Made by a program: the position numbers and the translations under genes | Shown: positions 197-42,444 of the stretch, one piece after another | Layout: each line of letters opens with the position of its first letter | Position numbering within the stretch: the first letter of the stretch is position 1 | The notes under the pieces: generated by a model | What the model was told of the DNA's origin: nothing | What the model saw: the letters and a program-made list of their open reading frames with translations, nothing else | Database searches by the model: none | IMG/VR virus record: IMGVR_UViG_3300031825_000353 | From: a virus | DNA: 64,000 nucleotides | Strand: one strand, 5' to 3'

Positions 197-203
197 CGGT
201 GCC

Positions 204-3644: not shown

Positions 3645-3782
3645 GCTTGCACCAAGGTGGGGAGGCCCCTGGTCAGTCGAACCCGGATTTCTGAGCCGGG
3701 CCCGTAGGCAATGGCTTGTTCAGCTCGCGCCTGGTCGTGCAAGTGTGCCTCCCCACCCCAAGGTGGGTGTTGTCATGGGGAG

Positions 3783-3808
3783 GCGATGTACTGTTCGGCG
3801 CGATTATC
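3783..3808 (-). promoter_or_regulatory. 26-bp putative late promoter/activator site, copy 1 (upstream of lysis block)
   Basis: GATAATCGCGCCGAACAGTACATCGC, 23/26 identical to 21703..21728; both intergenic. Confidence 0.65.
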
Positions 3809-3813
3809 GCCCG

Positions 3814-4305: not shown

Positions 4306-4314
4306 GGGGCTCCC

Positions 4315-9384: not shown

Positions 9385-9386
9385 CG

Positions 9387-10376
9387 CTAGGCGAACTTCT
9401 GAACCATGAAATTCGGGAAGCAAAGGAAATTTTGCGACCCGATTTGATAAACAGAGTTGGATGCGAACCCAAAGGATGTTGCATTTGACGCAAAAATATT
9501 GGGTAGATCTCCGAGCAGGCTGTAGCCGGAACCATCGCGCTGCGCAAAGATTCGCATCGGGAGAAGGTTCGCTTGGGCATTCATGAGGGAAACTTGTCTT
9601 CCCGAGAAATATATATAGCTAGGAATTTCCGAAGGCATAGACCCGTATTCATTATCAATTCCAGTGACGATCAACTTCCCGGTGTAACCATAGCCATAAA
9701 AGGAAAGGGTATTAGGACCACAAGCAAGCCATTTATCCGTGAACCCATCCACGTCAGCACGAACAAAGAGGGTTGGGCAACCCCCGCCATCACCAAACTG
9801 CCCGGGGACGCGAGCGGTCACATCCGGTGTACCCGCGCCCCAGACCGACAGGGTTTCACCACCGTAAAACCCGCTGAGGGCCGCGAAGAAATAGGCACCG
9901 CCTGTCCACGCCCCAGCCTTCTCAATCGCCGCCCCCCACCCCATGTGGGTGAAAATATTTGGGGTGCGTTCGATGACGACAGTGATGTGGTCGGAACCAT
10001 CATCCAGGAAGTGGTAGGCCGTCATGTTACCCACAGGGGTCTGCATGAATGCCCCCACGATGTAGGTCTGCCCCGCACCGATCGGACCACCCGCCTGAGC
10101 GTTCCACGCACTGGTAGACAGGTACCCGGTGCCGACATAGAGGCCGATGCCGATGTAGGTGGTGGTTCGGCTGGAGCCGCCGGTGAAGATGGTCTCATTG
10201 CCGTGGGTGGCCCGGAGATTGACGTAGTTCCCACCCTTGGAAAGATGCGCACGCCATCCGTTCCCGTCGATTTGCGAGAGGTGGCTCGTCCATCCTTGGG
10301 TGACGGCCCAGGTGACCAGCTTCTGCAGAAGGTCGGTTGGGCTTGAGGCAGTCCCGGTCTGGTGTGAAGCGGCCAT
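9387..10376 (-). CDS. Virion structural protein after tape measure (start ATG 10376)
   Basis: MAASHQTGTASSPTDLL N-terminus paralogous to next gene; RBS GGGGG. Confidence 0.78.
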   Translation of the reverse strand: MAASHQTGTASSPTDLLQKLVTWAVTQGWTSHLSQIDGNGWRAHLSKGGNYVNLRATHGNETIFTGGSSRTTTYIGIGLYVGTGYLSTSAWNAQAGGPIGAGQTYIVGAFMQTPVGNMTAYHFLDDGSDHITVVIERTPNIFTHMGWGAAIEKAGAWTGGAYFFAALSGFYGGETLSVWGAGTPDVTARVPGQFGDGGGCPTLFVRADVDGFTDKWLACGPNTLSFYGYGYTGKLIVTGIDNEYGSMPSEIPSYIYFSGRQVSLMNAQANLLPMRIFAQRDGSGYSLLGDLPNIFASNATSFGFASNSVYQIGSQNFLCFPNFMVQKFA

Positions 10377-10384
10377 GCTACCCC

Positions 10385-11536
10385 CTAATCCATGCGAATA
10401 GCGAAGTAATCGGTTTTCGAATTGCGGAAGACGTTCTGGACCACCAGCCAGGTGTCCCGCCCGATGGTCATCGTGTTTTCCGTGGCGTTGGAGTAGCCGG
10501 TCGTCGCCCACACACCATCGAATCGGCCGAAGACATTGGGGGCCGATTCGGTGAGGACAATCGGGAGTACGGGATAGGACCCATCCAGATTTGGCCGCAG
10601 GTCCCCCATGGAGTTGGCATAGGGCCAAATGGACCCGGTGGACACGCTGTACCCACTGGCCGTAAATCCCCTCCAGAGCCCGTCTGGTCGGCGCAGCCTC
10701 AACTGAGATCGGTCGTTCGGCTGATCGGCCCAGGCCTTGGCAAAGGCAGAGTGGCTGCTGGTGGCATTCGAATATGACCAGGAGATGGACCCCGCCGCAG
10801 GCTCAACATCGAAGGCCATGGACCCGCCCACGACCAGCGGGTAGCTCCACTGGCCGGGGCTCGCGTAGGTCTCGAGGAACCCGAGGTAGGCCGATTCGTA
10901 GTTGGTGGAGATCTTGGCCACCACCACGACGCGCCGGCCGTTGGCCATGAACCAGTAGGGGATGGCGGCATTCCAGAGCGGCAGCACCGGGCCCATGAGT
11001 GTGGTGGAATTCACGATGGATCCGGCCTGCTGGCCGAAGGCCACGCCCGCTGCATAGCCGGTGAAACCACCGAGCTGCCAGTTGTAGTACCCGATGGAAT
11101 CCGTGAAGGTCTTCGCGCCGACATAGATCTGATCGGTGTTCGCATTCCCGGGGGCCATCCAGATGTATTCGCTTCCGGCCACCCCCCGCTTCTGCACCCA
11201 GGGCACGGTCATGACGAAGCTGATGGTGTCTCCGTTCGCCCAGGCGGTGCCTCCGGCTGCGACGGTGAAGGCCACCTTGGCATGGCTGAAGGCGGTGCCT
11301 ACCGTGCCGGTGCCCATGGCGCCCGTCACGGAGCCGGACACACCGAAGGCCGTGGCGCTCGTGAAGGTGAGGGTGATGGTCTCCTGGATGCTGGCGGCGG
11401 TCCCAATCAAGCTGGTGATGGTGCCCGTACCCACACCCGTGTAGGCCGGGGTCAGGGCGTGGCCCTTGAGCAGGAAGGTGTCGAGCTTGTCCAGCAGGTC
11501 GGTGTAGCTGGTGGCCGTGCCTTGCTCGAAACTCAT
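10385..11536 (-). CDS. Virion structural protein after tape measure
   Basis: MSFEQGTATSYTDLLDKL; PYWFMANGRRVVVVAK..YESAYLG motif; RBS GGAGG. Confidence 0.82.
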   Translation of the reverse strand: MSFEQGTATSYTDLLDKLDTFLLKGHALTPAYTGVGTGTITSLIGTAASIQETITLTFTSATAFGVSGSVTGAMGTGTVGTAFSHAKVAFTVAAGGTAWANGDTISFVMTVPWVQKRGVAGSEYIWMAPGNANTDQIYVGAKTFTDSIGYYNWQLGGFTGYAAGVAFGQQAGSIVNSTTLMGPVLPLWNAAIPYWFMANGRRVVVVAKISTNYESAYLGFLETYASPGQWSYPLVVGGSMAFDVEPAAGSISWSYSNATSSHSAFAKAWADQPNDRSQLRLRRPDGLWRGFTASGYSVSTGSIWPYANSMGDLRPNLDGSYPVLPIVLTESAPNVFGRFDGVWATTGYSNATENTMTIGRDTWLVVQNVFRNSKTDYFAIRMD

Positions 11537-11537
11537 G

Positions 11538-14396: not shown

Positions 14397-14934
14397 GGCG
14401 CAGCTCCCGGGTGGCCTTCTGGACGGAGGCGGAATCGGCCATGGAGAAGCTGGCCGAGGTGATGTCGCGGGCGAGTTGCTCGCGCTCCTGGCGGATCGAC
14501 TCCTCCAGGAAGGCGCGCAGCTGGCTGAGTGTGAGTTCCTGGATGGACTCCCAGGAGTGGCCGAAGCTGATCAGGCGCTGGGTGATGGAGGCCCAGGTGA
14601 GGTCGTCGCCTTCGGCGCCGCCGCCCTTGTCTGGGTCCCACAGGTCCCGGTTGATGGCGAGGGCAAAGCTGGCAAGCTTTTCGAACTCGGGTTCGGCCAG
14701 GGCCTCGACCCAGGCTCGGGGCTTCCCGCTGGCGCCCTCCAGGAGATCCATGAATGCGTCCCAGCCATCAGCCGGGACGGTGAGGCCTGCCGATACGACC
14801 ATGGCCCCCCAGCCTTGCATGGCGCGATCCACCAGGGGCAGCTCGCGGAACACGACCGGGCGGACATACAGCCGCTCCCCACCCACCCGGAGAGGGAGGG
14901 TGGGGAACAGGCTGGTCAGGGAGCCATCGGCCAC
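14389..14934 (-). CDS. Tail assembly chaperone (GTG start 14934)
   Basis: Lies between tail tube and tape measure; TWASITQRLISFGHSWESIQELTLSQLRAFL C-terminal motif. Confidence 0.75.
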   Translation of the reverse strand: MADGSLTSLFPTLPLRVGGERLYVRPVVFRELPLVDRAMQGWGAMVVSAGLTVPADGWDAFMDLLEGASGKPRAWVEALAEPEFEKLASFALAINRDLWDPDKGGGAEGDDLTWASITQRLISFGHSWESIQELTLSQLRAFLEESIRQEREQLARDITSASFSMADSASVQKATRELRRV

Positions 14935-14936
14935 GG

Positions 14937-15713
14937 CTACTTCACGTTGTAGACGGCGCCGAACTGGCCAAGGGTGGCGTTCGAGGGCCTGAGGTCGTCC
15001 ATGAGGACGGAGCCCTCGATGGGGAACTTGGCGTAGTCGTCGGTGATGAGGTCGAGCTGCTTGGCCGGATCGATCAGCACCTTGTAGAGGTCGATGAGCA
15101 CGGGGTTGTTGCTGTCGGCCGTGTTCAGGCCCTCGATGAAGAAGTAGTAGGGGACGGAACCCTGGGTGAAGAGGCCCATCTCGGTGGTGGCGCCGGGGGT
15201 GTAGTCGGCCTTCAGGGGGCCGACGAAGGGGCCGCCCGTGGTGAGATCCAGGATCTCGATGGCGCCGGCGGTGGCATTCAGCCGGTAGTTGGTGCCCGCC
15301 ACGAGGGTCTTGGGAGTGCCGGTGCTGTCCTTGATGGTGACGGCGGTGGCGGCCCGCTTGGTGAACCGGAGGAGGTCGCCCACGGCCAGGGTGCTGACAC
15401 CCCCACCCAGGACTTCCCCAGTGATGGCGCCGCCGGCCGCGACAGTGGCGATGGTGGCGCGGAAGCAGAGCTGCAGGTTCTCCTTCTGGATGGATTCCAG
15501 GGTGAGGGAGAGGCTGGCCTTCTTCTCGGTGTCCATGCGGGCATCGGTGAGGTTCTGGCCGGACCAGCTTTCCTTGTGCTCGATGGTGGTGAGCTCGAGG
15601 CCGACCTTGGCCTCGGGGCAGTTGCCGACCCAGCGCAGATTCTGGGGGTTCCCGTTGGCATCGCGGGTTCCCATCCAGACCTTGCCCTGGCCGCGGTAGA
15701 GAATGGTGGCCAT
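14937..15713 (-). CDS. Major tail (tube) protein
   Basis: YRGQGKVWMG...LRWVGNC...IEHKES N-terminal motif; position. Confidence 0.88.
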   Translation of the reverse strand: MATILYRGQGKVWMGTRDANGNPQNLRWVGNCPEAKVGLELTTIEHKESWSGQNLTDARMDTEKKASLSLTLESIQKENLQLCFRATIATVAAGGAITGEVLGGGVSTLAVGDLLRFTKRAATAVTIKDSTGTPKTLVAGTNYRLNATAGAIEILDLTTGGPFVGPLKADYTPGATTEMGLFTQGSVPYYFFIEGLNTADSNNPVLIDLYKVLIDPAKQLDLITDDYAKFPIEGSVLMDDLRPSNATLGQFGAVYNVK

Positions 15714-21749: not shown

Positions 21750-23678
21750 CTAGCCGTGGATGCCCCGGTTGAGGATCCGGCGGCCTCCGGGCTGGTCGTA
21801 GGAGACCCGGTCCACCGCCTGGCTGGCCCTGGCGGCCAGGGCCTCCAGCTCAGCGCGGCCATCCGGGCCGCCGAGGTGGGGGGCGAGGATCTTGGTGATG
21901 GCCCACCAGCTGCTGTAGGCGTAGCTCCAGAGATCGAGAGCCTCGTTGCGATCTCGGGTCTGGACCCAGCGGAATGAGGTCTTGCGGGTCTTGGCGTCTG
22001 TGACGGGCATGCGCTTCTCGGAGCCGAGCTGTTCGTGGTACTCATGGCTGGCCCAGGCTGGAATGTGGATGGACTTCGGGGCGTTCGATTCCAGAGCTAT
22101 CCGGCTGAAGAAGACGCGCTTGGTGTCATCGGTGCTGGTATTAAAGACGCGCTGGGTGTGCTTCCGGCTGCTGGATTCTTCACACCAGCCCTTCGACGCG
22201 AGAGTTTCGACGCCCATCTGAGGGAAGACCCAGCGCTCGTGCCGGGGCGCACAGAAGTTGTAGACGGCATCGCGGGTGTTGCCGTCGCGGCCGTCGATGA
22301 AGACGATGTGAGCCGTCATCTGAGCGCCGTTCTGATGTCTCCAGCCCTGGAGCAGCCAGGCATCCAGGTCTTCCCACACCTCCGGGGTTTGGGGGTTGCC
22401 GGTGAAGACCTGGAAGTCGATGAGGTAGGCGCGCTCATCGGGGGCGAAGCCGACGGCCTGGGCCTCCAGACGCCCCTGGGCCGCGGTCTGCACGTCGACC
22501 TGGACGGAGATGATGGCCACGCCATCGGGCACCACACCCTTGGGCCGGTCCTCCTTCTCGGCCCGGGCCCTGGTCTCATCGGGCTCCACGGACTCTCCGG
22601 GAGCGCTGTAGGTTTCGGCGAGGTTGAGGTTGATGAAGGCCTTGAGCTCCAGCTGGTCGCCCTGGGCATCCACCCACTCCTGCGCCAGCTTCGCCCAGTG
22701 GCCGCTGAACATGGCGTAGAGGCCGTTGGCGTGATAGCCCTTCACGGCGGTGACGCCGGGGCGGCGGTGCTTCCAGTGCCCGGCCTCCATCATGGGCACC
22801 TTCCAGCGCTCCTCGATCTTGTGGCCGCACCGGAGGCAGGACCAGTAGACGCTATCAGGGAGCACCTGGTTGTCCTTGTCCTTCTCGTAGCGCAGCAGGT
22901 ACTCGGTGGGGTTGGTGGGATTCCGCCAGAGGAAGGGCTCCATGGCGTTGCAGTTCGGGCAAGGGTTGAGGTAGATGCCCTGGGAACTGCGGTTGTAGGC
23001 CTTCTCGATGCGGGAAACGCCGCTCGGCATGGCCGGGGTGCTTCCGATAAGGAGGCGGGCATCAAAGAACTCGTCCATGCGGCGCCGGATGATCTTGTCG
23101 GGGTCGCCTTCGTCCGAGACATCGTTCTTGTACCCGTCGGCCTCGTCCTCGATGCCGAAGCGGCTGCGGATGGACCGCAGTTCGCGGGGGTTCCCCGCGC
23201 TGAGGACGGAAATCGAGGCGCCGTTGCTGAATCGCTTGTTGCGCGTGGTGCTGCCAGAGCCTTTCGAGGTGCTGACCCGGAGCAGCCGCATGAGCTCGGG
23301 TGTGGATTCGATCATCTCCTCGAGTCGATCCTTGGCGTACTGCTCGGCGGTATCGCGTGAGGGCAGGGCCATGATCATGGCCATGCCGTGAAGGCTGATG
23401 CCCCAGCCGATGGCGTTGTTGCAGATCTCGGACCACCCCAGGCGGGTGGCCTTCATGAACACCACTTCGCGGACATCGGGGTCGCAGCAGCTGGCCTGGA
23501 TCTCCCGTTGGATGGGGTCGGCCACCCATTGCCCAGGACGGCCGGAGGCGGAGGGGAGGACGCGGTGCGCGGATGCCCATTGCTCGATGCTGATGTCGGC
23601 CGGCGGCGCCCAGCGGCGGCGGAGGCGATCCTGGGCGGCGTCGAGTTCGGCGAGGGCGGTGGGGTGGGAGGAGATCAT
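21750..23678 (-). CDS. terL: Terminase large subunit, GpA family
   Basis: VVFMKATRLGWSE (Walker A variant), IEDEADGY (Walker B), GSTP, RNEALDL. Confidence 0.95.
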   Translation of the reverse strand: MISSHPTALAELDAAQDRLRRRWAPPADISIEQWASAHRVLPSASGRPGQWVADPIQREIQASCCDPDVREVVFMKATRLGWSEICNNAIGWGISLHGMAMIMALPSRDTAEQYAKDRLEEMIESTPELMRLLRVSTSKGSGSTTRNKRFSNGASISVLSAGNPRELRSIRSRFGIEDEADGYKNDVSDEGDPDKIIRRRMDEFFDARLLIGSTPAMPSGVSRIEKAYNRSSQGIYLNPCPNCNAMEPFLWRNPTNPTEYLLRYEKDKDNQVLPDSVYWSCLRCGHKIEERWKVPMMEAGHWKHRRPGVTAVKGYHANGLYAMFSGHWAKLAQEWVDAQGDQLELKAFINLNLAETYSAPGESVEPDETRARAEKEDRPKGVVPDGVAIISVQVDVQTAAQGRLEAQAVGFAPDERAYLIDFQVFTGNPQTPEVWEDLDAWLLQGWRHQNGAQMTAHIVFIDGRDGNTRDAVYNFCAPRHERWVFPQMGVETLASKGWCEESSSRKHTQRVFNTSTDDTKRVFFSRIALESNAPKSIHIPAWASHEYHEQLGSEKRMPVTDAKTRKTSFRWVQTRDRNEALDLWSYAYSSWWAITKILAPHLGGPDGRAELEALAARASQAVDRVSYDQPGGRRILNRGIHG

Positions 23679-24115
23679 GCCGAGGCCTCTTCTTGGGCCA
23701 GGCCGCGCAGGGCCCGGCGGATCTCTGCCCCTACCTTCCCCGCCGCGTCTGGGCCGATGGTGGGCCGTAGGCGAGCCTCCAGCGCCAGGAGCTCATGGCG
23801 CGCGGGGTTGATGATGGCGGTCATGGCCTGCTCGTAGTCGGCCACGGTGAGGATCTGCTTCCGCTTCTCGGCGAGTTCCAGCTCGGCGATCTCCGCTTTG
23901 GCGGTGTCGTAGCGCTCGCGGCCGGTGATCTGGCCATCTCCCCGGGTGGTGCCCGCGGACAGTTTCTCCTGAAGGAACTTCACGTACCAGCGCAGGCAGT
24001 CCAGCTCGTCGTAGTCGCCCCGCTTGACCTTGGGGAATCCGGCCTCTTTCGCAAGCTGCTGGACCCGCCTGGGGGTGAGGCCGAAGCTGTCTGCAATTCT
24101 TTGAATTCCCGCCAT
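23675..24115 (-). CDS. terS: Terminase small subunit, Nu1-like wHTH
   Basis: IADSFGLTPRRVQQLAKE...YDELDCLRWY; AELELAEKRKQIL. Confidence 0.88.
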   Translation of the reverse strand: MAGIQRIADSFGLTPRRVQQLAKEAGFPKVKRGDYDELDCLRWYVKFLQEKLSAGTTRGDGQITGRERYDTAKAEIAELELAEKRKQILTVADYEQAMTAIINPARHELLALEARLRPTIGPDAAGKVGAEIRRALRGLAQEEASA

Positions 24116-24244
24116 GTTGCGCTCGATCCTTGGGGTCTGGCAGTTATTAAAGCAAGGGTGCTTATACTGCTATTGCAATAAGCAGATACTGGCCTTCGAA
24201 TGGCAAAGCGAAATGGGGTCCCAGAGACCTACGCACTGACCCAT

Positions 24245-24290
24245 ACGCGGTCCGAATTACCCGCAGGGGCACCCCCCCGGGGAAGGACCC
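24245..24290 (-). other. Putative cos packaging site
   Basis: Minus strand GGGTCCT (matches lambda cosQ heptamer), then G-rich stretch and GCGGGTAATTCGG, about 130-175 bp upstream of terS. Confidence 0.62.
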
Positions 24291-24464
24291 ATCGATGCAC
24301 CTTGCAACATTTGCATGTCCAAGTGTGGCAATATTTACACGCTGACGCGCCGGGGCATCCACTCCGATGTGACGCGATGCGGCATAGAATCGAGCATGTG
24401 ACCTTCTCGATTTCTTCTGAAGCACTACCACGGTTAATTGGCCGATGCAGCAGGGGCGCATGTT

Positions 24465-25550
24465 TCAGTCCTCCCCTGCCGCACTTTTGCGGCCAGCCCA
24501 CCCGGTCTTCCGCGCCACCCGCTTCTGCGCTTCGGCTATCCGCCCAAGATCCCAGCCCAGGTAGACAGCGGTGGTGCGGATGTCCTTCTGCTCGAGGGCC
24601 ATCTGGATGTCCTGGATGGTCGCCCCGTTCTCACTCAGCCAGGTGGCGTAGGTGGCCCGAAGGCGGTGGGGCGTCATCCGAGGGACACCCACCGCCTTAC
24701 ATGCGGCATCGAAGACTCGGCGGATCCGCCCCGGCGTCACGGGCTTTCCCTTGAGGGTCGGGGCCATCCAGCCGTAGGGCTTGGCCTTCGCCCTCAATCG
24801 GTCCATGAGCCAGGACGGGACAGGACGAGGCACGGCATCCCCCCCCTTCGTTCCTCCGGGGGTGTAGGTCTCGCGTTCCAGGTCGAGCCATTCCCACCGT
24901 GACCGCTGGGCCTCGCCCCCTCGCAGGCCGATGCCGATCTCCAGGGCCAATACCATGCCCAGACCCGGGTCGTGCTCGGTCAGGGCATCTACCTCATCCA
25001 GCCACTCGTCAGCCTTGTCCGTCGGGATGAGGGGCTTGGGCTTCCGCTTCAGCTTGCTCTCTGCCACGTTGAAGGGCATGGCCCGGATCATGTTGCGGCT
25101 GATGGCCCAGCGGCACACGATCCGGATGTAGGTGAGCCACTGGTTCCCGGTCGAAAGGGCGTGGGTCTGAAGGAACACAGCCAGCTCGTCCTCGACCTTC
25201 GGGGTGGTGACCTGGGTCAGTAGCAGATCGCCGAGGCTCCCGAGGTGCAGGCGCCCGCAGCGCTCCATGTTTTCCAGGTGGCTCTTGCTCTTGCGAAGGA
25301 TGTGCAGGGGATGGTTGACCCACTGGACGAAGGCGGCCCGCAGTGTGGGCTCCGGCTCCTCACCCCTCGACCGCATCAGCGCCTTCTGGTGGATGTCCAG
25401 CGCCACCCGCTCAGCTTTGGCCGTGTTCCGCAGTGGCTCCTTGGTCGTCCGTGTCCGCCGCTTGTTGGCGATCTGAAACTCGCAATGCCAGGTCCCCCCC
25501 CTGGGGACCATCGTCACGGGCCCGCACCGGTAGCGCCGCTCGGTCACCAC
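24465..25550 (-). CDS. Second tyrosine recombinase, atypical (LGH replaced by LEQ)
   Basis: GLRGGE (R), TKG (K), HRLR, TTAVY (Y); GTG start coupled to upstream stop. Confidence 0.88.
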   Translation of the reverse strand: MVTERRYRCGPVTMVPRGGTWHCEFQIANKRRTRTTKEPLRNTAKAERVALDIHQKALMRSRGEEPEPTLRAAFVQWVNHPLHILRKSKSHLENMERCGRLHLGSLGDLLLTQVTTPKVEDELAVFLQTHALSTGNQWLTYIRIVCRWAISRNMIRAMPFNVAESKLKRKPKPLIPTDKADEWLDEVDALTEHDPGLGMVLALEIGIGLRGGEAQRSRWEWLDLERETYTPGGTKGGDAVPRPVPSWLMDRLRAKAKPYGWMAPTLKGKPVTPGRIRRVFDAACKAVGVPRMTPHRLRATYATWLSENGATIQDIQMALEQKDIRTTAVYLGWDLGRIAEAQKRVARKTGWAGRKSAAGED

Positions 25551-26329
25551 AGCTTCACCTTTTGGAGCATGGTCCAAAGCGCGTCCCGGAAGTGGCCCTC
25601 GAACACCTGGTTGAAGGTGGCCTCGATGGTCCCCTTGAAGTCGAGCACCTTGGAATACCTGGCTCGTTTCGGCACGAACTTGAAGAGCTGGGCCACCCCC
25701 CGTTTGCCCTTGCGGGTGTAGATGCCCAGCGGCGTCTTGGTCTTGATCGACCAGAGCACGAAGTAATCGCGCTGGGTCTTCGCTCGGCGCTTGTCCCGGG
25801 CTGGGTTCCGGCCGGTGCGGCCATCCGTCCTCCGGTTCTCGGTGGAGCCTTGATCGCGGAGGGCCCTCATGGCCGAGAGCACCTGCACATAGGTACCGCC
25901 CGGGATGTTCCCGTAGGCGTTCAGCTTCGCGTCGTCCCCGGGCTCCATCTGCCACCCTGGGGGGAGGATGCCCTTGGCGCGGAGCAGCATCTCGCTCTTC
26001 TTATTCGCACGGTAGCCACCCTGGGTCAGGGCCTTCAGGTATTCACTCGGCTCCACGACCTTGCCGCGAGTTTGCCAATTCCAATCCGCACCCTTCACGA
26101 AGACATCGTATTCCTGACGATTCTTCGTCGCCGCCTGGTAGCGGGTCGCATGCTGGGTCTGCGGCGTGGGTCGGTCGAGTTTGGAGCTCAGCACCTTGTC
26201 GAAGGCGTACTTGGCCGCCACGGCCGTCTTGGTCATGGCGGTGGCGATGGCGTATTTCAGGCCCTTGCCACCGCGAAGGTAGGTAAGCCTGGCCATCCAC
26301 TCTTTCGTGTGCCAGCCGAACTTGATCAT
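25544..26329 (-). CDS. Neck/tail-completion (gpZ/HK97 gp10-like) protein
   Basis: AIATAMTKTA...KLDRPTPQT and LNAYGNIPGG..QVLS motifs. Confidence 0.55.
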   Translation of the reverse strand: MIKFGWHTKEWMARLTYLRGGKGLKYAIATAMTKTAVAAKYAFDKVLSSKLDRPTPQTQHATRYQAATKNRQEYDVFVKGADWNWQTRGKVVEPSEYLKALTQGGYRANKKSEMLLRAKGILPPGWQMEPGDDAKLNAYGNIPGGTYVQVLSAMRALRDQGSTENRRTDGRTGRNPARDKRRAKTQRDYFVLWSIKTKTPLGIYTRKGKRGVAQLFKFVPKRARYSKVLDFKGTIEATFNQVFEGHFRDALWTMLQKVKLW

Positions 26330-26694
26330 CCGAGCCCTCCCCCGGCCCGCCGGACGAGCTGCTGGACCCGGGCCTTGCGTCGACTGGTGAACCAGAGCGC
26401 GCGGAGGCGGCTGACCGAGACTCCCACCTCGATGGACACCGCCCGGAAGACCGCCTCCCGCGGGAGATCCGGGTGGAGCTGGGAGACGAACTCGCAGCGC
26501 CACTTCAATTCGTTGTCTTCGAGGTAGATCTCCATGGCCTCGGCGAAGGTTTCGAGAATCGTCTGCTTCAGGCGTTCGGCTTCGGCCGGATCGAGCAGCG
26601 GCCGGATCGCACCGCGGCGCACCGCCTGCCGGAGGTCGTGGGGGAGGTCCTCAGGGGTGACCCAGCCCTTCCAGTTGATGGGCGCCCTGCTCAA
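26326..26694 (-). CDS. Hypothetical protein with C-terminal HTH-like segment (candidate late regulator)
   Basis: REAVFRAVSIEVGVSVSRLRALW; position after replication genes. Confidence 0.45.
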   Translation of the reverse strand: MSRAPINWKGWVTPEDLPHDLRQAVRRGAIRPLLDPAEAERLKQTILETFAEAMEIYLEDNELKWRCEFVSQLHPDLPREAVFRAVSIEVGVSVSRLRALWFTSRRKARVQQLVRRAGGGLG

Positions 26695-27332
26695 GCCTCA
26701 CCCCCAGCCGCGGCCTTCAGGTCCAGGGGGCTGAGCCGCATGTCCTGGCCGCCCACATAGCTGGCCGGCCAGCTTCCGAGGATGCGGCTCTTGAGGGCCG
26801 GGTCGTAGAAGGCCTCCAGCGCTTCGGGCGTGACCAGGTTGCTGGTCCAGAGCACGGGGAACTTGCGGCGGTGGCGGGCGTCCAGCACCCTGGCCAGCAG
26901 CGGTCGCGCCGGGTCCTTCTCGCCCGAGGTGCGCTCGCGGCCCAGGTCGTCCAGCACCAGCAGCGGCACATCCTCGGCCCACTCCGCCCACTGGTTGAGC
27001 CAGACGGGCTCGAAGCGGCGCTCATGGATGCGCTCGGCTTGGTCGTGCCAGTTCACCCAGAGCAGGCGCCGGTCTCGGGCGATGAGCCCGTCGATCCAGC
27101 AGAGCGAGGCCCGCCAGGGGTCCGGCTGCGAGCGCACCGCGGCCTCCACCAGGCCCGCCACGTAGTGCGTCAGGGCCCAGGTCTTGCCGGTGCCGTTGGT
27201 GCCCACCAGGCCGAAGCCCCCAGGCCGCGCCGGCACCGCATGGCGCGCCGGGTGATCCAGCGCCTCCAGCTCCCGGGCCTCCAGTCCGGCCCTGGCCAGC
27301 AGCTCGCGGGTTCGTGCATGGAATGTGCTCAT
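26691..27332 (-). CDS. DnaC/IstB-like helicase loader ATPase
   Basis: Walker A GTNGTGKT, Walker B LLVLDDLG, PVLWTSNL. Confidence 0.88.
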   Translation of the reverse strand: MSTFHARTRELLARAGLEARELEALDHPARHAVPARPGGFGLVGTNGTGKTWALTHYVAGLVEAAVRSQPDPWRASLCWIDGLIARDRRLLWVNWHDQAERIHERRFEPVWLNQWAEWAEDVPLLVLDDLGRERTSGEKDPARPLLARVLDARHRRKFPVLWTSNLVTPEALEAFYDPALKSRILGSWPASYVGGQDMRLSPLDLKAAAGGEA

Positions 27333-28195
27333 CGTTCACCTGCAAGGGGGAGAGTCGGGAAAGGGGAAGGGCCCTGGGACCCTGGAGACGGTCGGAGAGG
27401 CATGAACCGCCCGGGGCTGGCCCGAGGGCCGCCCGTGTTCTGGGCGCGTTCCAGCCAGCTCATGGCGAAGCGGCCGATGCCCTTCTGGGTCTTCCGGCGC
27501 GAGAGGTTCCCAGGGTCGTTCAGCCAGAGGAGCATCTTGCGGACCTCGGCCAGGACGTTCACCCCAGGGAAGGCCTCGGCCCAGGTCTTGACCATGGCCT
27601 CGGTGACGGGCCAGGTCTTCCCACCTGAACCAGCCACAGGGAACTCCAACACCACCGGCGTGGAGTCGGACTTGTCCGGCTCCGCGCAATACTCTTTTTT
27701 GGGAGCGGGAGCGGGAGCGGGAGCGGGAGCGGGAGGGGCGTCATTTGCTGCCCATTTGCTGTTCACTTGCTGTTCACTTGCTGCCCGTTTCCTGGAAGTC
27801 GCACCTTTCCGGCCAGCATCCGACCGCATTTCAGAGAGCGTCCGACCCTGCTCTTTCCGAGCCATCTCCCGCTGGAGCCGCTTGCCGACGTAGCGGGGGG
27901 CGTGGTCGAAGAGGTCGTGGCACTGGTAGTGGCCCGAGCGACCTTCCACCTCCTCGATGAAGCCCGGGTGATCCTCACCGCCGGCATCCATCAGGGCCCG
28001 GCAGAGGGCCCCGGGTTCTCCCGGCCATTGGGCCGCGGCCTCCACATCGATCACGTCACCAAGGAAGGGGTCGCCGTTCTGGTAGCACTTCTCCCACATC
28101 AGCTCGAGGCAGCCCAGGGCCATGGGGGCGCTGCCCACCAGGCGCGCCAGCCGGAGGAACTTGCGGTGTTGGGTCAAGCCAGGCCGAGCCATCAC
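27329..28195 (-). CDS. Replication initiator (lambda O-like architecture)
   Basis: N-terminal HRKFLRLARL..GCLELMW; Pro/Ala linker; internal iterons; upstream of DnaC-like gene. Confidence 0.75.
   Translation of the reverse strand: MMARPGLTQHRKFLRLARLVGSAPMALGCLELMWEKCYQNGDPFLGDVIDVEAAAQWPGEPGALCRALMDAGGEDHPGFIEEVEGRSGHYQCHDLFDHAPRYVGKRLQREMARKEQGRTLSEMRSDAGRKGATSRKRAASEQQVNSKWAANDAPPAPAPAPAPAPKKEYCAEPDKSDSTPVVLEFPVAGSGGKTWPVTEAMVKTWAEAFPGVNVLAEVRKMLLWLNDPGNLSRRKTQKGIGRFAMSWLERAQNTGGPRASPGRFMPLRPSPGSQGPSPFPTLPLAGER
27701..27786. repeat. Putative replication origin: (GGGAGC)x5 plus four tandem 11-bp iterons
   Basis: ATTTGCTGCCC, ATTTGCTGTTC, ACTTGCTGTTC, ACTTGCTGCCC at 27743-27786, inside initiator gene. 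Confidence 0.65.
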
Positions 28196-28698: not shown

Positions 28699-28830
28699 CG
28701 GTCATCCGCGAAAATTTAGGCTTGGTTTGCGTTTGCAGTTCTACGGTTCGTTCAACAATTACGTTTTAAAAAGAGTGATTAGGCGAACTTGGGCGTCCGA
28801 ATGAAGTTCGTCTAATTCAAAGTTGGGCGT

Positions 28831-29172
28831 TCACTCGGATCGCAGACTTTCCCGGTGCTCAAGTTCTTCACCGCTGTCCTCCCACGAAATGGCCATGGCG
28901 TGGCAGCAGGCGGAGCACCAACGGAAGGTCTGGATCCCTCCGTCGTAGGCTTCGGCTCTTATTCGGATTCGCTCTCCCGGTTTGATCTCTCCGGTGCAGA
29001 TTTGGCAAGGCCCAGGCTTTCGCGCCACGCCGATCTTATCTTTCAGCACCACTTCACCGTCCCCGAAGTCTCCCTCGAAAGGGTTGTAGGCCATGCACTC
29101 CTTTTCGTTGAAGTCGCGCCCAACCGGCTCCTTCAACTCGGACCCAGCCTGGATTTGCTCATTTGGCATCAT
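28831..29172 (-). CDS. Cassette 1 ORF, Cys-rich (CQIC/CSAC) putative Zn-binding protein
   Basis: Starts in loop of attC-A; VARKPGPCQICTGEIKPGERIR motif. Confidence 0.75.
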   Translation of the reverse strand: MMPNEQIQAGSELKEPVGRDFNEKECMAYNPFEGDFGDGEVVLKDKIGVARKPGPCQICTGEIKPGERIRIRAEAYDGGIQTFRWCSACCHAMAISWEDSGEELEHRESLRSE

Positions 29173-29217
29173 CGTGGTTCCCTTCTCCGGCTGGGCCGGT
29201 TAAGTCGAAAGTTAGGC
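29118..29217 (+). repeat. attC site A
   Basis: GCCCAAC ... CTT[C]AAC[T]CGG[A]CCCAGCC / GGCTGGG CCG GTT AAG ... GTTAGGC. Confidence 0.9.
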
Positions 29218-29469
29218 ATCTTCTGTGAGCCTTACGCCCTTGAAGTAGATATGGCCGCAACTAAAACACTCGTAGGGCGTTTCCGTGTCGCGCTTCATCC
29301 ACTCGTGGGCTGGATTGCAGTTCCAGCAGGATCTAGTTGGGAACAACCCCAATAATCCGGATGGCCCATTTGCCTTCGCCCACTCTTCCGCTTCTTGCCT
29401 CAATGTTTCGACGGTGCCCAACCCGCCGCTCAACTCGGACCCTTGGGCCTGTTCATCTTTTCGGTTCAT
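29212..29469 (-). CDS. Cassette 2 ORF, Cys-rich (CWNC/CFSC)
   Basis: ATG and RBS AGGAAGG in loop of attC-B; TAA stop is inside the GTTAGGC core of attC-A. Confidence 0.72.
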   Translation of the reverse strand: MNRKDEQAQGSELSGGLGTVETLRQEAEEWAKANGPSGLLGLFPTRSCWNCNPAHEWMKRDTETPYECFSCGHIYFKGVRLTEDA

Positions 29470-29514
29470 GGTTCGTCCTTCCTGGCCCAAGGGCCGGTTA
29501 GCTTTTCGTTAGGC
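29416..29514 (+). repeat. attC site B
   Basis: GCCCAAC ... GCT[C]AAC[T]CGG[A]CCCTTGGGCC / GGCCCAAGGG CCG GTT AGC ... GTTAGGC. Confidence 0.92.
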
Positions 29515-29796
29515 GTCAGCCTTCGTGCAAAGAAGGAACAGGCTTCCCCCTTCGTTGACCAGGCTGTCTTTCTGGTGGTGCTTGCATGTGCCCATAGGCA
29601 CGGGGCCTTGAATGTTCGTGATGATCCCGTGGGCGCAGACGCGGGGCTTCTCACCCAGCGCCTCGGTGTGAGCCAGAAGGGGGCAGGTTGAACAGGAAAG
29701 GTCCCAGATCCCCGCATTCCCTTCCGTGAACTTCACCCGGCGCCTAACCACGGCGCTCAACCCGGACCCCGCCTTCGTTTCGTCCTGGCTCATCAT
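29509..29796 (-). CDS. Cassette 3 ORF, Cys-rich hypothetical
   Basis: RBS AAGGAG and ATG in loop of attC-C; stop in core of attC-B. Confidence 0.72.
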   Translation of the reverse strand: MMSQDETKAGSGLSAVVRRRVKFTEGNAGIWDLSCSTCPLLAHTEALGEKPRVCAHGIITNIQGPVPMGTCKHHQKDSLVNEGGSLFLLCTKADA

Positions 29797-29839
29797 GTCT
29801 CCTTGGCCCACGGCGGGGCCGGTTAGCTTTTCGTTAGAG
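29742..29839 (+). repeat. attC site C
   Basis: GCCTAAC ... GCT[C]AAC[C]CGG[A]CCCCGCC / GGCGGGG CCG GTT AGC ... GTTAGAG. Confidence 0.9.
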
Positions 29840-30046
29840 CTCCCGCAGCACGATGTGATTGTCCTTGCTCCGGTAGTAGAGGTCCGGGAACCGGTCACGC
29901 CACGCCATCAGCTCCGCCTCCAGCTTGGCTCGCGTGATGCAGCAAAGTGGCTGCGGGAATGCCGTTTCAAAACTGAATGGAGTGATCATCGCCCTAACCG
30001 TGGCGCTCAACTCGGACCCTTGGGCCTGTTCATCTTTTTGGTTCAT
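29834..30046 (-). CDS. Cassette 4 ORF, hypothetical
   Basis: Starts in loop of attC-D; stop in core of attC-C. Confidence 0.7.
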   Translation of the reverse strand: MNQKDEQAQGSELSATVRAMITPFSFETAFPQPLCCITRAKLEAELMAWRDRFPDLYYRSKDNHIVLREL

Positions 30047-30091
30047 GGTTCATCCTTCCTGGCCCAAGGGCCGGTTAGCTTTTCGTTGGGC
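29992..30091 (+). repeat. attC site D
   Basis: CCCTAAC ... GTTGGGC; 82/84 nt identical to site B. Confidence 0.92.
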
Positions 30092-30092
30092 G

Positions 30093-30272
30093 CTACCTGT
30101 AGATCAGAAGGGCAGCCCAAACAGTTGCAGCAGCGCCGAGAATGAAGCTGACGAGATCCGCACCGAGCGTCGTTTCTTCTTTCCTTGGGTAGTTGCAAAT
30201 TGCGATTCGGCCAAGTCGGATCACCCCGGCTATAACGCCAAGCCAGAAAGTGAATTTAATGAATGTGAGCAT
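30093..30272 (-). CDS. Cassette 5 ORF, 59-aa two-TM membrane protein (absent from ORF track)
   Basis: Manual translation MLTFIKFTFWLGVIAGVIRLGRIAICNYPRKEETTLGADLVSFILGAAATVWAALLIYR; GAGG/AAGGG upstream. Confidence 0.7.
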   Translation of the reverse strand: MLTFIKFTFWLGVIAGVIRLGRIAICNYPRKEETTLGADLVSFILGAAATVWAALLIYR

Positions 30273-30286
30273 CCCTTAGTCCTCGC

Positions 30287-30381
30287 GCTCAACCGAGCGC
30301 TCAACTCAGACCCCGGCGCCTGATGGTTGTGGTTTCTTCATCGCTAATCCAGCGCCGGGGCTGGTTAGCTTGGCGTTAGGC
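30287..30381 (+). repeat. attC site E
   Basis: GCTCAAC ... GCT[C]AAC[T]CAG[A]CCCCGGCGC / GCGCCGGGG CTG GTT AGC ... GTTAGGC; compensatory CAG/CTG pair. Confidence 0.92.
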
Positions 30382-30612
30382 CGCTTCCATCTCAAATTGC
30401 ATTTCCAGCGCCAGCTCCTCAGTCACCAGCAACGTTCTACCGTCCGGCATAGTGCGTTCCCACATCCAAAGGCATCCCGGGGTCTGGCAGGTATGCTTCC
30501 ATCCAGCCGCTTCTAAAAACTTTTGAACCGCGTTTGTGTAGTTATCCGACGCCACGTCTTTCAGCGCGAGAAGTTGGTCTAATTTCATCCTTTCAATCGT
30601 TTCCACGTTCAT
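30376..30612 (-). CDS. Cassette 6 ORF, hypothetical
   Basis: RBS GGAGG; stop in core of attC-E. Confidence 0.75.
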   Translation of the reverse strand: MNVETIERMKLDQLLALKDVASDNYTNAVQKFLEAAGWKHTCQTPGCLWMWERTMPDGRTLLVTEELALEMQFEMEAA

Positions 30613-30621
30613 TTCCTCCGG

Positions 30622-30719
30622 GCCTAACCAGGCCCTTCAACTCGGACCCCAGCGCGGGTGCGATGTGGTTTCTGATAGGTCCGGCCTGCGCTGGGGCCGG
30701 TTAAGGGCGGGCGTTATGT
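30622..30719 (+). repeat. attC site F
   Basis: GCCTAAC ... CCCTT[C]AAC[T]CGG[A]CCCCAGCGC / GCGCTGGGG CCG GTT AAGGG ... GTTATGT. Confidence 0.9.
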
Positions 30720-31433
30720 GGATCTACTCATGCCGCTCGGCTCCCAGTTCCAAAGAGCCTCACCGCCGCGTAGCTCGGGCAGATAGATGCCGTCCACCTT
30801 GTCGGGCCGAACATACTTCCCGAGGAAATCCACTTCGCCCTTGCGCTCGCAGCGCCAGACAGCGCCCTCGGCTGGGTCGAGTGCCCCGTGATGGCCGGTG
30901 CCTCCAAGGCGAGCCATGGCCGTCTCGACAGAGCAGGGGCCGCCGAGATGAAGGACGGTCGGCGTGGTGATTCCGGCGCGGTCGCACCTGGCGCTCAGTT
31001 CCTCCCATAGCACCCGCTTCCCCTCCCTGAAGATGTCGAAAGCGGCGAAGGGTTCGTGGGCCAGCAGGTAGCGGGTGCCGTGGGCCTGGGCTAGCCATTC
31101 GCCACAGATCCGCTCCCCTTCGGCCAGCAGATCATTGAAGCGTGGCCAGTTCTGGGCCACCCACCCGGCGAAGAGGTGATGCTGCGAATAATGGCTTGTC
31201 TCCGCCCTCCACCCGGCGCGGGTGACGGGCACAATCACCCCGCCCAGCTTCCCGATGCCCACATTCGATCCGTCCAGCTTCTCTTGCACGATGATGAGGT
31301 CGTGCCGGTCCCTGACCCTTTCCGTGAGAATACGGGCCTGCCCGTCAGCGATCTTGTGATCTCCTGGCCCCAGCCTGCTCATGGGCAGGTGGCCGATGGA
31401 CCCGTAGGACTTCCCGCCGAATGGTTTGTTCAT
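30714..31433 (-). CDS. Cassette 7 ORF: ATP-dependent RNA ligase family protein (start ATG 31433)
   Basis: Nucleotidyltransferase motifs I QEKLDGSN, III GEW, IIIa FDI, IV EGAVW, V KYVR; stop in core of attC-F. Confidence 0.88.
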   Translation of the reverse strand: MNKPFGGKSYGSIGHLPMSRLGPGDHKIADGQARILTERVRDRHDLIIVQEKLDGSNVGIGKLGGVIVPVTRAGWRAETSHYSQHHLFAGWVAQNWPRFNDLLAEGERICGEWLAQAHGTRYLLAHEPFAAFDIFREGKRVLWEELSARCDRAGITTPTVLHLGGPCSVETAMARLGGTGHHGALDPAEGAVWRCERKGEVDFLGKYVRPDKVDGIYLPELRGGEALWNWEPSGMSRST

Positions 31434-31462
31434 CTTTTTGACTCCCTGTTGGTTGGGGTTCG

Positions 31463-31495
31463 CCACATAACCATCTCGCTCAACCCGGGCCCAGC
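31463..31495 (+). repeat. Half attC site G (R'' and L'' only)
   Basis: CCACATAAC is the exact reverse complement of GTTATGTGG at cassette start; GCT[C]AAC[C]CGG[G]CCC follows; no partner arm found. Confidence 0.75.
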
Positions 31496-40492: not shown

Positions 40493-41080
40493 TTGCGAAT
40501 TCGTATGTTGCTCCTCACGCTCTTCGTCTCCAGCTGGGCCATGGCCCAGGGCTTCGGCATCAGCCTGGGTCTCTCGGGCGCCAAGCCCCGCTCCATCCAG
40601 GACACCACGTTCACCAACCAGCTCGGCGCCTACCTCGGGGCCTCCTACCGGTGGAAGGAGTTCACCCTCGGCGCAGCCTACAAGACCGCGGGGAAGTCCA
40701 CCATCAGCTACTCGGGCTTCGAATCCAAGGACGAGTTCAAGTGGTCTTACTCCGAGGCCTCGCTCCAGTACGGCATCCCCTTCAAGGGGGAAAGCGTGAC
40801 GCAGCGGATCCTGCTGGGCGGCGCCATGCGATTCGAAAACACCAAGGCCGAGGACAACACCATCGGGCTCAGCGTCAGCGCCAACTACAACCGCTTCTGG
40901 TGGCGGGCCGGGTACGAGATCGAAGGAGAGGTCGACCAGGTGTTCACCAGCCTCGGCGTGTTCTACGCGGGCACCTCGAAGGAGACCTTCGACCCCAACA
41001 AGGACTACACGACCAAGGAAGCGCAGCGGCTCTTCGCGCCGACGAATGAATTCCAGATCATGGTGACCTTCAGGTTCTAG
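40493..41080 (+). CDS. Outer-membrane beta-barrel protein (lysogenic-conversion moron)
   Basis: RBS GGAGG before TTG; signal peptide ending AMA-Q; alternating aromatic beta strands; C-terminal FQIMVTFRF. Confidence 0.82.
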   Translation: MRIRMLLLTLFVSSWAMAQGFGISLGLSGAKPRSIQDTTFTNQLGAYLGASYRWKEFTLGAAYKTAGKSTISYSGFESKDEFKWSYSEASLQYGIPFKGESVTQRILLGGAMRFENTKAEDNTIGLSVSANYNRFWWRAGYEIEGEVDQVFTSLGVFYAGTSKETFDPNKDYTTKEAQRLFAPTNEFQIMVTFRF

Positions 41081-42251
41081 ACCCAGCCAACCCCGCCTCG
41101 ACTACGCCCACATCCTCCCGCAGCTTCTTGGCCGCGATATGGGCGTAGCGGCGCGTCTGGCGGCTGGTGGTGTGGCCCAGCATGTCGCCCACGTCGTCCA
41201 GGTCCAGGCCCTTCATGCGGGCCATGGTGGCGAAGGAGTGGCGGAGATCGTGGATGTGGAAGTCAGCGAGCCCCAGCTCCTTCAATTCCGTGCCCCGCCG
41301 GCGCTGCCACCAGCTTTCGAGCCCCTTATAGGGACCTTTCTTCCCGGGAAACACCCACTTCGACACCTTCCGTTCTGCGCGCTCTTTCAGCAGGGCCACG
41401 GCATGCGGGCCCAGGCCCACCAGGCGGTTCTTCTTGGTCTTCTTCCCGGTCTTGTGCTGAGTCCGCGGGATACAGATCACGCCGCCCTCCAGATCCATCC
41501 ACTCCCATTCCAGCTTCTGGGCCTCGCCCAACCGGGCGCCAGTCATCAGGAGGAACCGCAGCTGGGAGACGGGCAGGGCATGCTTCTCCTCATTCCGATC
41601 CAGCCAGGCGGCAAAGGCCACCAGTTCCGCTTCACTGAGTGCGCGGGTGCGCTCCTCCTCTTCGAATCGGATGACATCAAGGCAGGGGTTCGAGTTCCTG
41701 GGCCGCTGCTTCCATTCCTCAGCGGTGGACAGGGCCGACGAGAGCACGGCGAGGGCGAGGTTGGCTGAGCGGGGATGCTCGGCCAGGGCCTGGTGCACCT
41801 CGGTGGCCTCCTTCGGCCCGATGTCCGCCACCATCCGGCTGCCCAGGGCAGGGACGAGCACCTTGCCCACGATGCGGGTGTAGTCCTTGATGGTCTTCTT
41901 CGCCAGGCGGGCCACGTGCTTGGCCAGCCATTCCTTCAGGAATTCCCGCATGGTCTGGGCCTTCCGCAGCCGCTTCTTCTCGGTGCGCGGGTCCTCGCCG
42001 CGCGCGACCATGCCCAGGTGATCCGCCGCAGTCTTGCGTGCGGCTGCCACCGGCAGCTTCGGGAAGGCCCCGAATGTTTCGCAACCATCGCGGCCGCGCA
42101 AGCTGAAGCGTATGATGTAGGCGACCTTCCCCTTCGGCGAGACTCGCACACCGAAGCCGGGCAGCTTGGTATCCATCACTTCGTATCGCTTTTCCTCGGC
42201 TTGCAAAGTCACCAGGAATTCTTTGAGGATGTGCCTTTCACGGAGTGCCAT
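41070..42251 (-). CDS. int: Phage integrase (tyrosine recombinase with arm-binding domain)
   Basis: TGARLGE, HKT, HDLRH, LGH, TRRY; N-terminal DTKLPGFGVRV; adjacent to att site. Confidence 0.95.
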   Translation of the reverse strand: MALRERHILKEFLVTLQAEEKRYEVMDTKLPGFGVRVSPKGKVAYIIRFSLRGRDGCETFGAFPKLPVAAARKTAADHLGMVARGEDPRTEKKRLRKAQTMREFLKEWLAKHVARLAKKTIKDYTRIVGKVLVPALGSRMVADIGPKEATEVHQALAEHPRSANLALAVLSSALSTAEEWKQRPRNSNPCLDVIRFEEEERTRALSEAELVAFAAWLDRNEEKHALPVSQLRFLLMTGARLGEAQKLEWEWMDLEGGVICIPRTQHKTGKKTKKNRLVGLGPHAVALLKERAERKVSKWVFPGKKGPYKGLESWWQRRRGTELKELGLADFHIHDLRHSFATMARMKGLDLDDVGDMLGHTTSRQTRRYAHIAAKKLREDVGVVEAGLAGSRT

Positions 42252-42395
42252 GGGGTTTCTCCGATTTTCGGGTTTCACGGGGTTTTCACGGAACGCAGCA
42301 ACCCACAGCCACCATCGTGCACCATTTTCAGACCCATAAACCCAAGAAATTCAACCACGCCACCAGCTCAAACCACCCCATCCAAGCGCGGCTCC

Positions 42396-42444
42396 CTGAT
42401 TCGTAATCAGCAGGTCGCAGGTTCGAATCCTGTAGTTGGCTCCA
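42396..42444 (+). tRNA. 3' half of tRNA-Thr(CGT) forming the attP core; not a complete gene
   Basis: CTGA-TTCGTAA-TCAG anticodon arm, GCAGG-TTCGAAT-CCTGT T arm, AGTTGGC-T-CCA end; no 5' half upstream. Confidence 0.9.

Follow-up and report, generated by a model that had tools for sequence, protein, structure and literature searches.

Why would a temperate phage that has an integrase next to its attachment site carry a second tyrosine recombinase in the middle of its lytic genes? The question is raised by the gene that we call rec, found in a temperate soil phage, the virus record IMGVR_UViG_3300031825_000353 of IMG/VR, whose 64,000 nucleotides (nt) are referred to here as the window. An initial annotation of this DNA had proposed that rec possesses a non-canonical active site, that it is linked to the neighbouring cos region and that it might mobilise a nearby array of attC cassettes. 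Sequence comparisons and a structural model show instead that rec is a member of a conserved family of 'second' recombinases, as yet uncharacterised, situated at the junction between the replication and the packaging genes of temperate phages.

The deduced product of rec matches the Pfam family Phage_integrase (PF00589; 50.8 bits, with a cut-off of 27.1) and the integrase family phrog_1 (4e-43), and the genome also encodes a separate integrase, Int1, so its description as a second tyrosine recombinase holds. The catalytic residues R210, K235, H295-x-x-R298 and Y330 are all present and the catalytic position reserved for His or Trp is occupied by Q321, giving a match to five of the six catalytic residues. 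Box II reads A-L-E320-Q321-K-D where relatives have A-L-G-H-K-D, in agreement with the LEQ motif, in place of LGH, that had been reported at first together with the retention of R, K, HxxR and Y. An AlphaFold2 model of the protein, built with the family alignment (mean predicted local distance difference test score of 88.7), contains an N-terminal arm-type domain at approximately residues 7-61, with strands at 7-39 and a helix at 43-61, a helical core-binding domain at around 70-151 and a catalytic domain at around 177-349. In Foldseek searches, this model aligned over its full length with lambda Int (1z1b), Tn916/Tn1545 Int, phiRv2 Int and IntD, covering query residues 1-350 for phiRv2 Int, Tn916 Int and IntD, and 364 columns for lambda Int 1z1b. 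Tn1549 Int, XerA, IntI4, XerH and Cre aligned over the last two domains, and the Foldseek probability was 1.00 for Tn1549 Int, lambda Int, XerA, IntI4 and XerH. Because of the three-domain model and of these full-length alignments, rec is best described as a predicted lambda-Int-type, three-domain tyrosine recombinase with an arm domain.

Comparisons at the sequence level agree with an assignment to the phage integrases at large, and not to the integron or Xer recombinases. The XerC and XerD models gave 41 and 33 bits on rec, with cut-offs of ca. 330, and the IntI models TIGR02249 and NF011946 gave 33.8 and 17.4 bits, with cut-offs of 265 and 435, respectively; the alignments to the IntI models were limited to the C-terminal box II region. 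The hidden Markov model search that had been suggested as a check, against IntI, Xer and phage Int profiles, was therefore passed for Phage_integrase and phrog_1 and failed for IntI and Xer. Sequence profiles placed archaeal XerA-like, IntI4 and XerH chains nearest to rec, over the catalytic domain only, and the Pfam arm-domain models gave no match on it. In pair comparisons, rec is 25% identical to Int1 of its own phage and 24% identical to an IntI of the Holophagae clade.

Is the unusual box II a property of the family? A homologue search over 5.8 billion proteins retrieved 76 homologues of 35-87% identity, few of which are from named organisms (Geothrix, Mesoterricola, Holophaga and other Acidobacteriota). 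The box II consensus of these 76 homologues is LGH, and so is the motif of the nearest relative, which is 87% identical. Among 115 family members, the residues R, K, H, R and Y are invariant in all but one, and the third His is replaced by Gln in only three, the other 112 having His; the position before it is variable, with R in 91 members, G in 18 and E in five. As a family trait, then, a non-canonical active site does not stand, and the LEQ motif is peculiar to the copy in the window. A maximum-likelihood tree of 27 Holophagae-clade proteins implies at least three events of change from His to Gln, and one of the Gln clades kept diversifying after the change. The ratio of nonsynonymous to synonymous substitution rates (dN/dS) of rec is 0.10 with respect to an 86%-identical relative. 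In related enzymes, other hydrogen-bonding residues are tolerated at the His/Trp position with a modest loss of rate. From the LGH consensus of the family, the repeated change to Gln, the diversification of a Gln clade and the low dN/dS, the pair H321Q/G320E appears to be a variant that recurs and is tolerated, at the catalytic position that matters least, and neither a redesigned active site nor decay; rec itself has every sign of being intact and under purifying selection.

Scans of viral and genome collections added full-length relatives of 35-42% identity from prophages of Paraburkholderia, Trinickia, Pandoraea, Massilia, Janthinobacterium and related genera, and the family is present in temperate phages and prophages of two phyla, from Holophagae (Acidobacteriota) and from Burkholderiales. 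Its position is highly conserved: in 115 loci, the gene lies directly after replication genes of DnaC, P, DnaB or O type, on the same strand and often overlapping them by 12-37 nt. A terminase is found 0.1-7 kb downstream, belonging to one of at least four unrelated types (phrog_15 or GpA, phrog_9, phrog_5653 and phrog_2), and in the phages of Oxalobacteraceae 2-7 kb of other genes separate the family gene from the gene for the small terminase subunit, terS. Two Phage_integrase genes occur in all five records with an estimated completeness of at least 97%. In every chromosomal prophage examined, the family gene is internal, with replication genes upstream and late genes downstream, and the visible boundaries of the elements are formed by the other integrase and a tRNA gene (tRNA-Thr in L002 and tRNA-Leu in L093 and L096).

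We found no member in 50,697 sequenced phage records and no match in the plasmids of PLSDB. In DNA and protein searches of cultured phage genomes, P0001 matched no more than distant primary integrases of actinophages, and a Janthinobacterium homologue had no match. The exact rec protein has no record in the contig index. There are phages with a GpA-type terminase that share the same module of a phrog_1924 gene, terS and the large subunit gene terL with the window and that have no rec; in a check for non-orthologous displacement, these contained only unannotated small open reading frames (ORFs) at the equivalent position.

The window contains a complete circular genome of 43,387 bp and then wraps round, so that positions 1-20613 are identical base for base to 43388-64000; features listed above 43387 are thus duplicates of those below 20614. 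The G+C content is about 66% and nearly all genes are on the minus strand. Read along this strand, the genome starts with attP, which corresponds to the last 49 nt (3' end) of a tRNA-Thr(CGT) gene, and a P4-type integrase with an arm domain (Int1), followed by early genes for CII-like and Bro/Ant-like proteins, an exonuclease, an HD hydrolase and a methyltransferase. Next are the attC cassette array (about 31500 to 28822), a DUF3850 gene, the replication genes, the phrog_1924 gene, rec, a spacer of 350 bp, terS, a terL of GpA type, and the portal, head, tail and lysis genes (Table 1). The start codon of rec is contained in a GTGGTGA sequence that also holds the TGA of the upstream gene (25546-25544), with AAGGTG 5 nt upstream of the start, and the translational coupling proposed for rec is thereby borne out. 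The 350-bp spacer was scanned for sigma-70-like promoters, intrinsic terminators and Rfam matches and yielded none, no tRNA gene was predicted near rec, and a repeat analysis of the genome showed no repeated arm-like motif near it. This agrees with the claim that rec has no tRNA or att site of its own, as far as the tRNA is concerned.

Table 1. Position of rec and of the features discussed in the text, in window coordinates
Feature	Position	Strand	Details
Second tyrosine recombinase, rec	24465..25550	-	361 amino acids; GTG start at 25550, stop at 24465
Conserved non-coding block 1	24411..24436	-	Core GGTAGTGC, then CAGAAnAAA; 30-55 nt after the rec stop
Conserved cos-like element	24204..24290	-	GGGTCCTTCC, variable G-rich stretch, GCGGGTAATTCGGACC, GTCAGTGCGTAGG, CATTTCGCTTTG
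Terminase small subunit, terS	23675..24115	-	phrog_57
Terminase large subunit, terL, lambda GpA type	21750..23678	-	phrog_15
Upstream gene, phrog_1924 'minor tail protein'	25544..26308	-	phrog_1924, 3e-45; its TGA overlaps the start of rec
Replication module upstream of rec	26326..28195	-	Repeat analysis and synteny across relatives
122-amino acid ORF	26326-26694	-	
DnaC-like loader	26691-27332	-	
Initiator-like gene, 288 amino acids	27329-28195	-	Internal 11-12-bp iterons at 27701-27794
attC cassette array	28822..30723	+	Six complete attC sites, top strand +; cassette ORFs on -
Primary integrase, Int1	41070..42278	-	Arm-DNA-bind_3, SAM-like and catalytic domains; 25% identical to rec
attP core	42396..42444	+	3' 49 nt of tRNA-Thr(CGT): anticodon arm, T arm and acceptor end; read from the sequence

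The attP core lies between Int1 and the lysis end of the genome, and it is the sole tRNA fragment identified in it. Contigs of two other metagenomes match the window up to 42396 and then run into the 5' half of a tRNA gene, and the related element L002 sits between an Int1 homologue and a tRNA-Thr(cgt) gene; the assignment of attP is based on both observations. The P4-type integrase with an arm domain lies beside this tRNA fragment, in support of the first proposal that the canonical Int serves attP.

The genetic context of rec is informative on what it might do. The overlap of its start with the preceding stop and the lack of a predicted promoter or terminator argue for expression together with the replication genes and for read-through into the late genes, and the retained catalytic residues argue for strand exchange rather than mere binding. 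In lambdoid phages, the slot between replication and late genes holds junction-resolving and late-control functions. From the position of the gene and its retained catalysis we infer, tentatively and as something short of probable, that rec carries out a site-specific DNA transaction on the phage DNA during lytic growth. The recombinase would be made together with the replication proteins in lytic development and would then perform site-specific strand exchange on phage DNA; as an example of the outcome, multimeric or recombined replication products might be resolved into packageable units, although such resolution, specifically, is less likely than the general form of the proposal. In a more ambitious version, the family would provide a core function, unrecognised until now, to a wide range of lambdoid temperate phages, in which a catalytically active tyrosine recombinase with an arm domain, made with the replication proteins, would effect a programmed site-specific rearrangement or resolution required for the switch from replication to packaging. 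We consider this version somewhat unlikely, and extend the same reserve to its corollary that we would be facing a recombinase-driven step in development and not a step in integration.

Several observations weigh against a lytic DNA transaction. A genome-wide search for inverted and direct repeats found no convincing pairs beyond the attC family and those expected by chance, and block 1, beside rec, does not form a cluster of sites: there is one exact copy of GGTAGTGC genome-wide, at chance frequency and without clustering. In several relatives (L101, L006 and L018) there is no non-coding DNA at all adjoining the family gene. Moreover, recombinases for multimer resolution, such as Cre and XerCD, are devoid of an arm-binding domain, the three-domain architecture is typical of integrases, and we know of no cos phage that needs dimer resolution. 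Finally, rec is not essential to the GpA packaging system, since phages with the same phrog_1924-terS-terL module exist without it.

The architecture of rec leads to a first alternative, that rec is a second integrase with its own attP, used for another chromosomal site or another mobile element whenever the tRNA-Thr site is unavailable. Arm, core-binding and catalytic domains are arranged as in the integrases of phages and conjugative elements, which include the full-length Foldseek matches lambda Int, Tn916/Tn1545 Int, phiRv2 Int and IntD, the catalytic residues are conserved, and integrase clades that target the late-gene regions of prophages are known (PMC10111431). Nevertheless, at each of the chromosomal loci examined the gene lies inside the prophage, the visible boundaries were made by the other integrase and a tRNA gene (tRNA-Thr for L002, tRNA-Leu for L093 and L096) and many members lack adjoining non-coding DNA able to hold an attP, and we therefore regard a second integrase as unlikely. 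A nested satellite is likewise an unlikely source of the gene, since the phage in the window has only one replication module and lacks a regulatory zone like that of satellites. The closest known case is that of the helper-embedded satellites of the phage-inducible chromosomal island (PICI) type, with their own clade of tyrosine integrases (Tommasini, Mageeney and Williams 2023, PMC10111431). As in rec, these integrases lie within a prophage near its late genes (PMC10111431); however, they belong to nested satellites with their own AlpA and their own regulatory and replication zones, whereas rec is in the only replication operon of its phage. We considered a satellite of this type for the window and rejected it, because there is a single replication module, no AlpA-type gene beside rec, a stop/start overlap that joins rec to the preceding gene and no flanking direct repeats.

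With a similarly low probability, the main role of rec might be to bind specific DNA sequences where the early genes meet the late ones, either as an activator of late genes or as an architectural factor at cos or the late promoter, and thus fill the slot of Q, RinA or Ogr. In more than 100 phages the family gene is the last or nearly the last gene before the packaging operon, irrespective of unrelated terminases, and the Pfam family Q (PF06530) was not found in five complete phages bearing the family gene, nor was RusA, although the two absences do not tell the alternative readings apart; the negative result for Q covers one family of antiterminators, and a regulator of another type may exist. 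A conserved non-coding block directly follows the gene, present once per genome in ten diverse relatives and with columns that are invariant in the 10-phage alignment A4; it is found after rec in L004, L010 and L088, and is degenerate in L011 and L013. The gene has also been kept beside cos in L002 and L088, both without terminase, and in Paraburkholderia it lies beside Nu1-like genes, between a baseplate hub gene and an integrase. Against a purely regulatory role, 114 of the 115 members have kept all five residues of the catalytic core, which DNA binding alone would not require, and in the Oxalobacteraceae phages the 2-7 kb of genes before terS put the gene at a distance from the packaging operon.

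It is very unlikely that the copy of the window has been crippled by H321Q/G320E and is on its way to a pseudogene: a conserved catalytic position has indeed been hit, but the frame is intact, the dN/dS with respect to the nearest relative is that of a constrained gene (0.10), and Gln, which arose at least three times, persists in a clade that has diversified.

Proximity to cos was a prominent part of the initial view of rec. The conserved cos-like element, of 85 bp, starts at 24290, exactly 175 bp past the stop codon of rec, and thus at the distance that had been described. It is 87-97% conserved in phages in which the recombinases are 45-66% and terL 35-65% identical, and in relatives it is always found ca. 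90-135 bp upstream of terS; from its conservation and position, it is an element of the packaging module, most likely cos. In L003, L006, L014, L015 and L018, between one and five genes (1-3.5 kb) are interposed between the recombinase gene and terS, and the element, or its GGGTCCTTCC half, is then located 90-110 nt upstream of terS and not beside the recombinase gene. Because the cos-like element stays with terS when other genes intervene, its closeness to rec would be a consequence of gene order. A functional link of rec with cos is not supported, for this reason and also because family members precede three other, unrelated types of terminase.

The proposal that gave the locus its interest is that rec recombines the attC cassettes, acting as an analogue of IntI without the IntI insertion. 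The repeats at 29112-30723 are genuine attC-like sites, which combine R''/L''/L'/R' boxes, with bulges in the L boxes, and a variable stem that covaries, and the left boundary of the array, at 28822, is 3.27 kb from the start codon of rec, in agreement with the ca. 3.2 kb that had been estimated; five genes lie between them. With respect to the array, rec is on the side of intI and is oriented, like an intI gene, away from the cassettes. We searched ca. 1.9 Mb of sequence, from about 100 loci carrying rec homologues, with two attC covariance models, a first one built from six sites of the phage and a broader one built from 19 sites. Arrays were found in only three distinct phages, i.e. that of the window, L001/L008 (one phage) and L020, all of which carry the family gene; the recombinases of the other two are 69% (L001/L008) and 61% (L020) identical to rec. 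In contrast, no attC was matched by either model in the 10 kb upstream of the recombinase gene of more than 10 other Holophagae-clade phages, nor in any of the Burkholderiales loci searched, all with a recombinase. Homologues thus occur independently of attC arrays, which the initial annotation had named among the grounds for refuting the cassette role; the role is not supported and the co-occurrence that was put forward as a check comes out against it.

The protein is also a poor candidate for recombination of attC. The domain specific to IntI lies between the Lys beta-hairpin and the HxxR motif, and is known to contact the extrahelical bases of the folded attC in the VchIntIA structure (2a3v). 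In the profile alignment to IntI4 (2a3v), chain residues 179-241 had no counterpart in rec, and BLASTP comparison with a Holophagae-clade IntI opened ca. 50 gap positions in rec at the same insertion, confirming that rec lacks it. Conversely, canonical integrons exist in the chromosomes of the host clade, as found in Acidobacteria and Holophagaceae metagenome-assembled genomes (L173, positions 9154-12083; L174, positions 88-1760), where intI (465 and 458 bits on TIGR02249) is adjacent to attC sites and divergently oriented. These host sites scored 54-67 bits on the phage-derived model, comparable to the 68-78 bits of the phage's own sites, and the phage array and host integrons share one type of attC. 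Phage-borne attC sites are already known to be substrates of an IntI supplied in trans (PMC9892861). Given that most loci with the family gene have no array even with the broader model, that five genes separate rec from its own array, that rec fails the IntI models and lacks the insertion and that canonical IntI is available in the host clade, a cassette role for rec is the most improbable of the explanations, despite the position and orientation of the gene and its presence in all three array-bearing phages. The array of the phage thus fits the ordinary model, with host IntI acting in trans.

Assembled contigs from other metagenomes offer a further view of the cassettes. In two groundwater metagenomes from another study, only the cassette region 28822-31482 is covered, with a summed contig depth that peaks at 90 in the first and at 23 in the second, and is near zero elsewhere on the phage; the contigs begin exactly at 28822 and have loose ends at attC borders. 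This suggests that the cassettes circulate apart from the phage, although contig data provide a lead and not a proof. Joints between attC sites in the contig listing have short sides or are within repeats, and were not used as evidence.

How does rec compare with known systems? Lambda Int and Tn916 Int, which are heterobivalent integrases, have the same build, in which an arm domain of beta-sheet plus helix comes first, followed by a helical domain for core binding and then by the catalytic domain with R-K-HxxR-(H)-Y, yet they share only 14-19% identity with rec. Unlike integrases of this type, rec is never at the end of the prophage in the loci examined and has no adjacent attP, and every near-complete record with a family member contains a separate, end-located integrase. 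IntI belongs to the same superfamily, and the position and orientation of rec with respect to the array recall those of intI; IntI lacks an arm-type N-terminal domain, however, while rec fails the family model, lacks the insertion, is mostly found without arrays and is not adjacent to attI or attC. The Cre/loxP system of P1 and XerCD/dif come close to our working model of rec, being recombinases encoded by a phage or replicon that process the DNA of their own element and do not integrate it, but they are two-domain enzymes whose target site has been identified, lying beside the gene in the case of P1, and rec has an extra arm-type domain and no recognisable site. The antiterminator Q, activators of the RinA/ArpU type, RusA and NinG/Rap occupy the same slot as rec, between the replication genes and the packaging operon; their folds and chemistry are unrelated to those of rec, and the likeness would be positional only.

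Some members of the family are found in other contexts. In L002 (positions 1-15421, chromosome of Geothrix sp. PMB-07), an Int1 homologue and a tRNA-Thr(cgt) gene bound an element that retains early and replication-type genes, the second recombinase and a complete cos-like element, without terminase or structural genes. There is a gene for a Schlafen/AlbA-type ATPase after cos, and an insertion sequence inside the element. L088 is similar, with DnaB, the recombinase, the cos-like element and then HTH_17 genes; both could be cos-bearing, satellite-like derivatives or simple deletion remnants. We also considered the breakpoint of L002 and L088 as a marker of the rec site, but no inference is possible from it because all the phages part ways at that same point beyond the cos-like element. 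The context is different again in L093 (8199-17571), and likewise in L095-L098 and L107, from Paraburkholderia and Pandoraea. Here, a gene for a Mu GpP-like baseplate hub is followed by a gene for a protein of 197 amino acids, the recombinase gene, two Nu1/terS-like genes and two unassigned genes, and the locus ends with a P4-type integrase and a tRNA-Leu(caa) gene on the other strand. These loci showed no large terminase gene within 10 kb.

Further features of the genome concern the neighbours of rec. Within the initiator-like gene, positions 27701-27794 contain three 12-bp repeats of the GGGAGCGGGAGC type, followed by four 11-bp repeats of the TCAYTTGCTGY type, which resemble origin iterons inside an initiator gene as in lambda O. 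The homologues of terL carry the Pfam domains GpA_ATPase and GpA_nuclease. The start of the phrog_1924 gene is uncertain, as its open frame extends to 26503; a Pfam search with its protein gave no match, and its neighbours in the protein atlas are viral clusters, a minority of whose members have Minor_tail_Z or DUF6441. Together with the cos-like element, terS and the GpA-type terL, the phrog_1924 gene makes up a fixed module in Holophagae and Burkholderiales phages, and it lies just upstream of terS whether rec is before it, after it or absent; for a tail protein, this place immediately before cos is unusual. ARAGORN called a tRNA-Ser(tga) of 93 nt at 3222-3314 (+), which is probably spurious because it is antisense within a minus-strand ORF of the lysis block (3123-3719) with high G+C at third codon positions. 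The PADLOC defence models gave no match.

What does the presence of rec mean for these phages? A new solution to the recombination of attC hairpins, as had been claimed, does not hold, and rec is a new, uncharacterised family-level member of a very well-known class of enzymes; on present evidence, it is not extraordinary. The puzzle that remains is a conserved second recombinase, with intact catalytic residues and in a non-integrative position, in more than 100 prophages and viral contigs, and the role of an enzyme of the lambda Int type in the middle of a lytic operon appears to be a question that nobody has asked. If the family were only accessory, or an alternative integrase, this would be an ordinary finding. 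If, on the other hand, lytic growth proved to depend on it, the accepted scheme of lambdoid development would gain a new step, and a new family of site-specific recombinases would become available as well.

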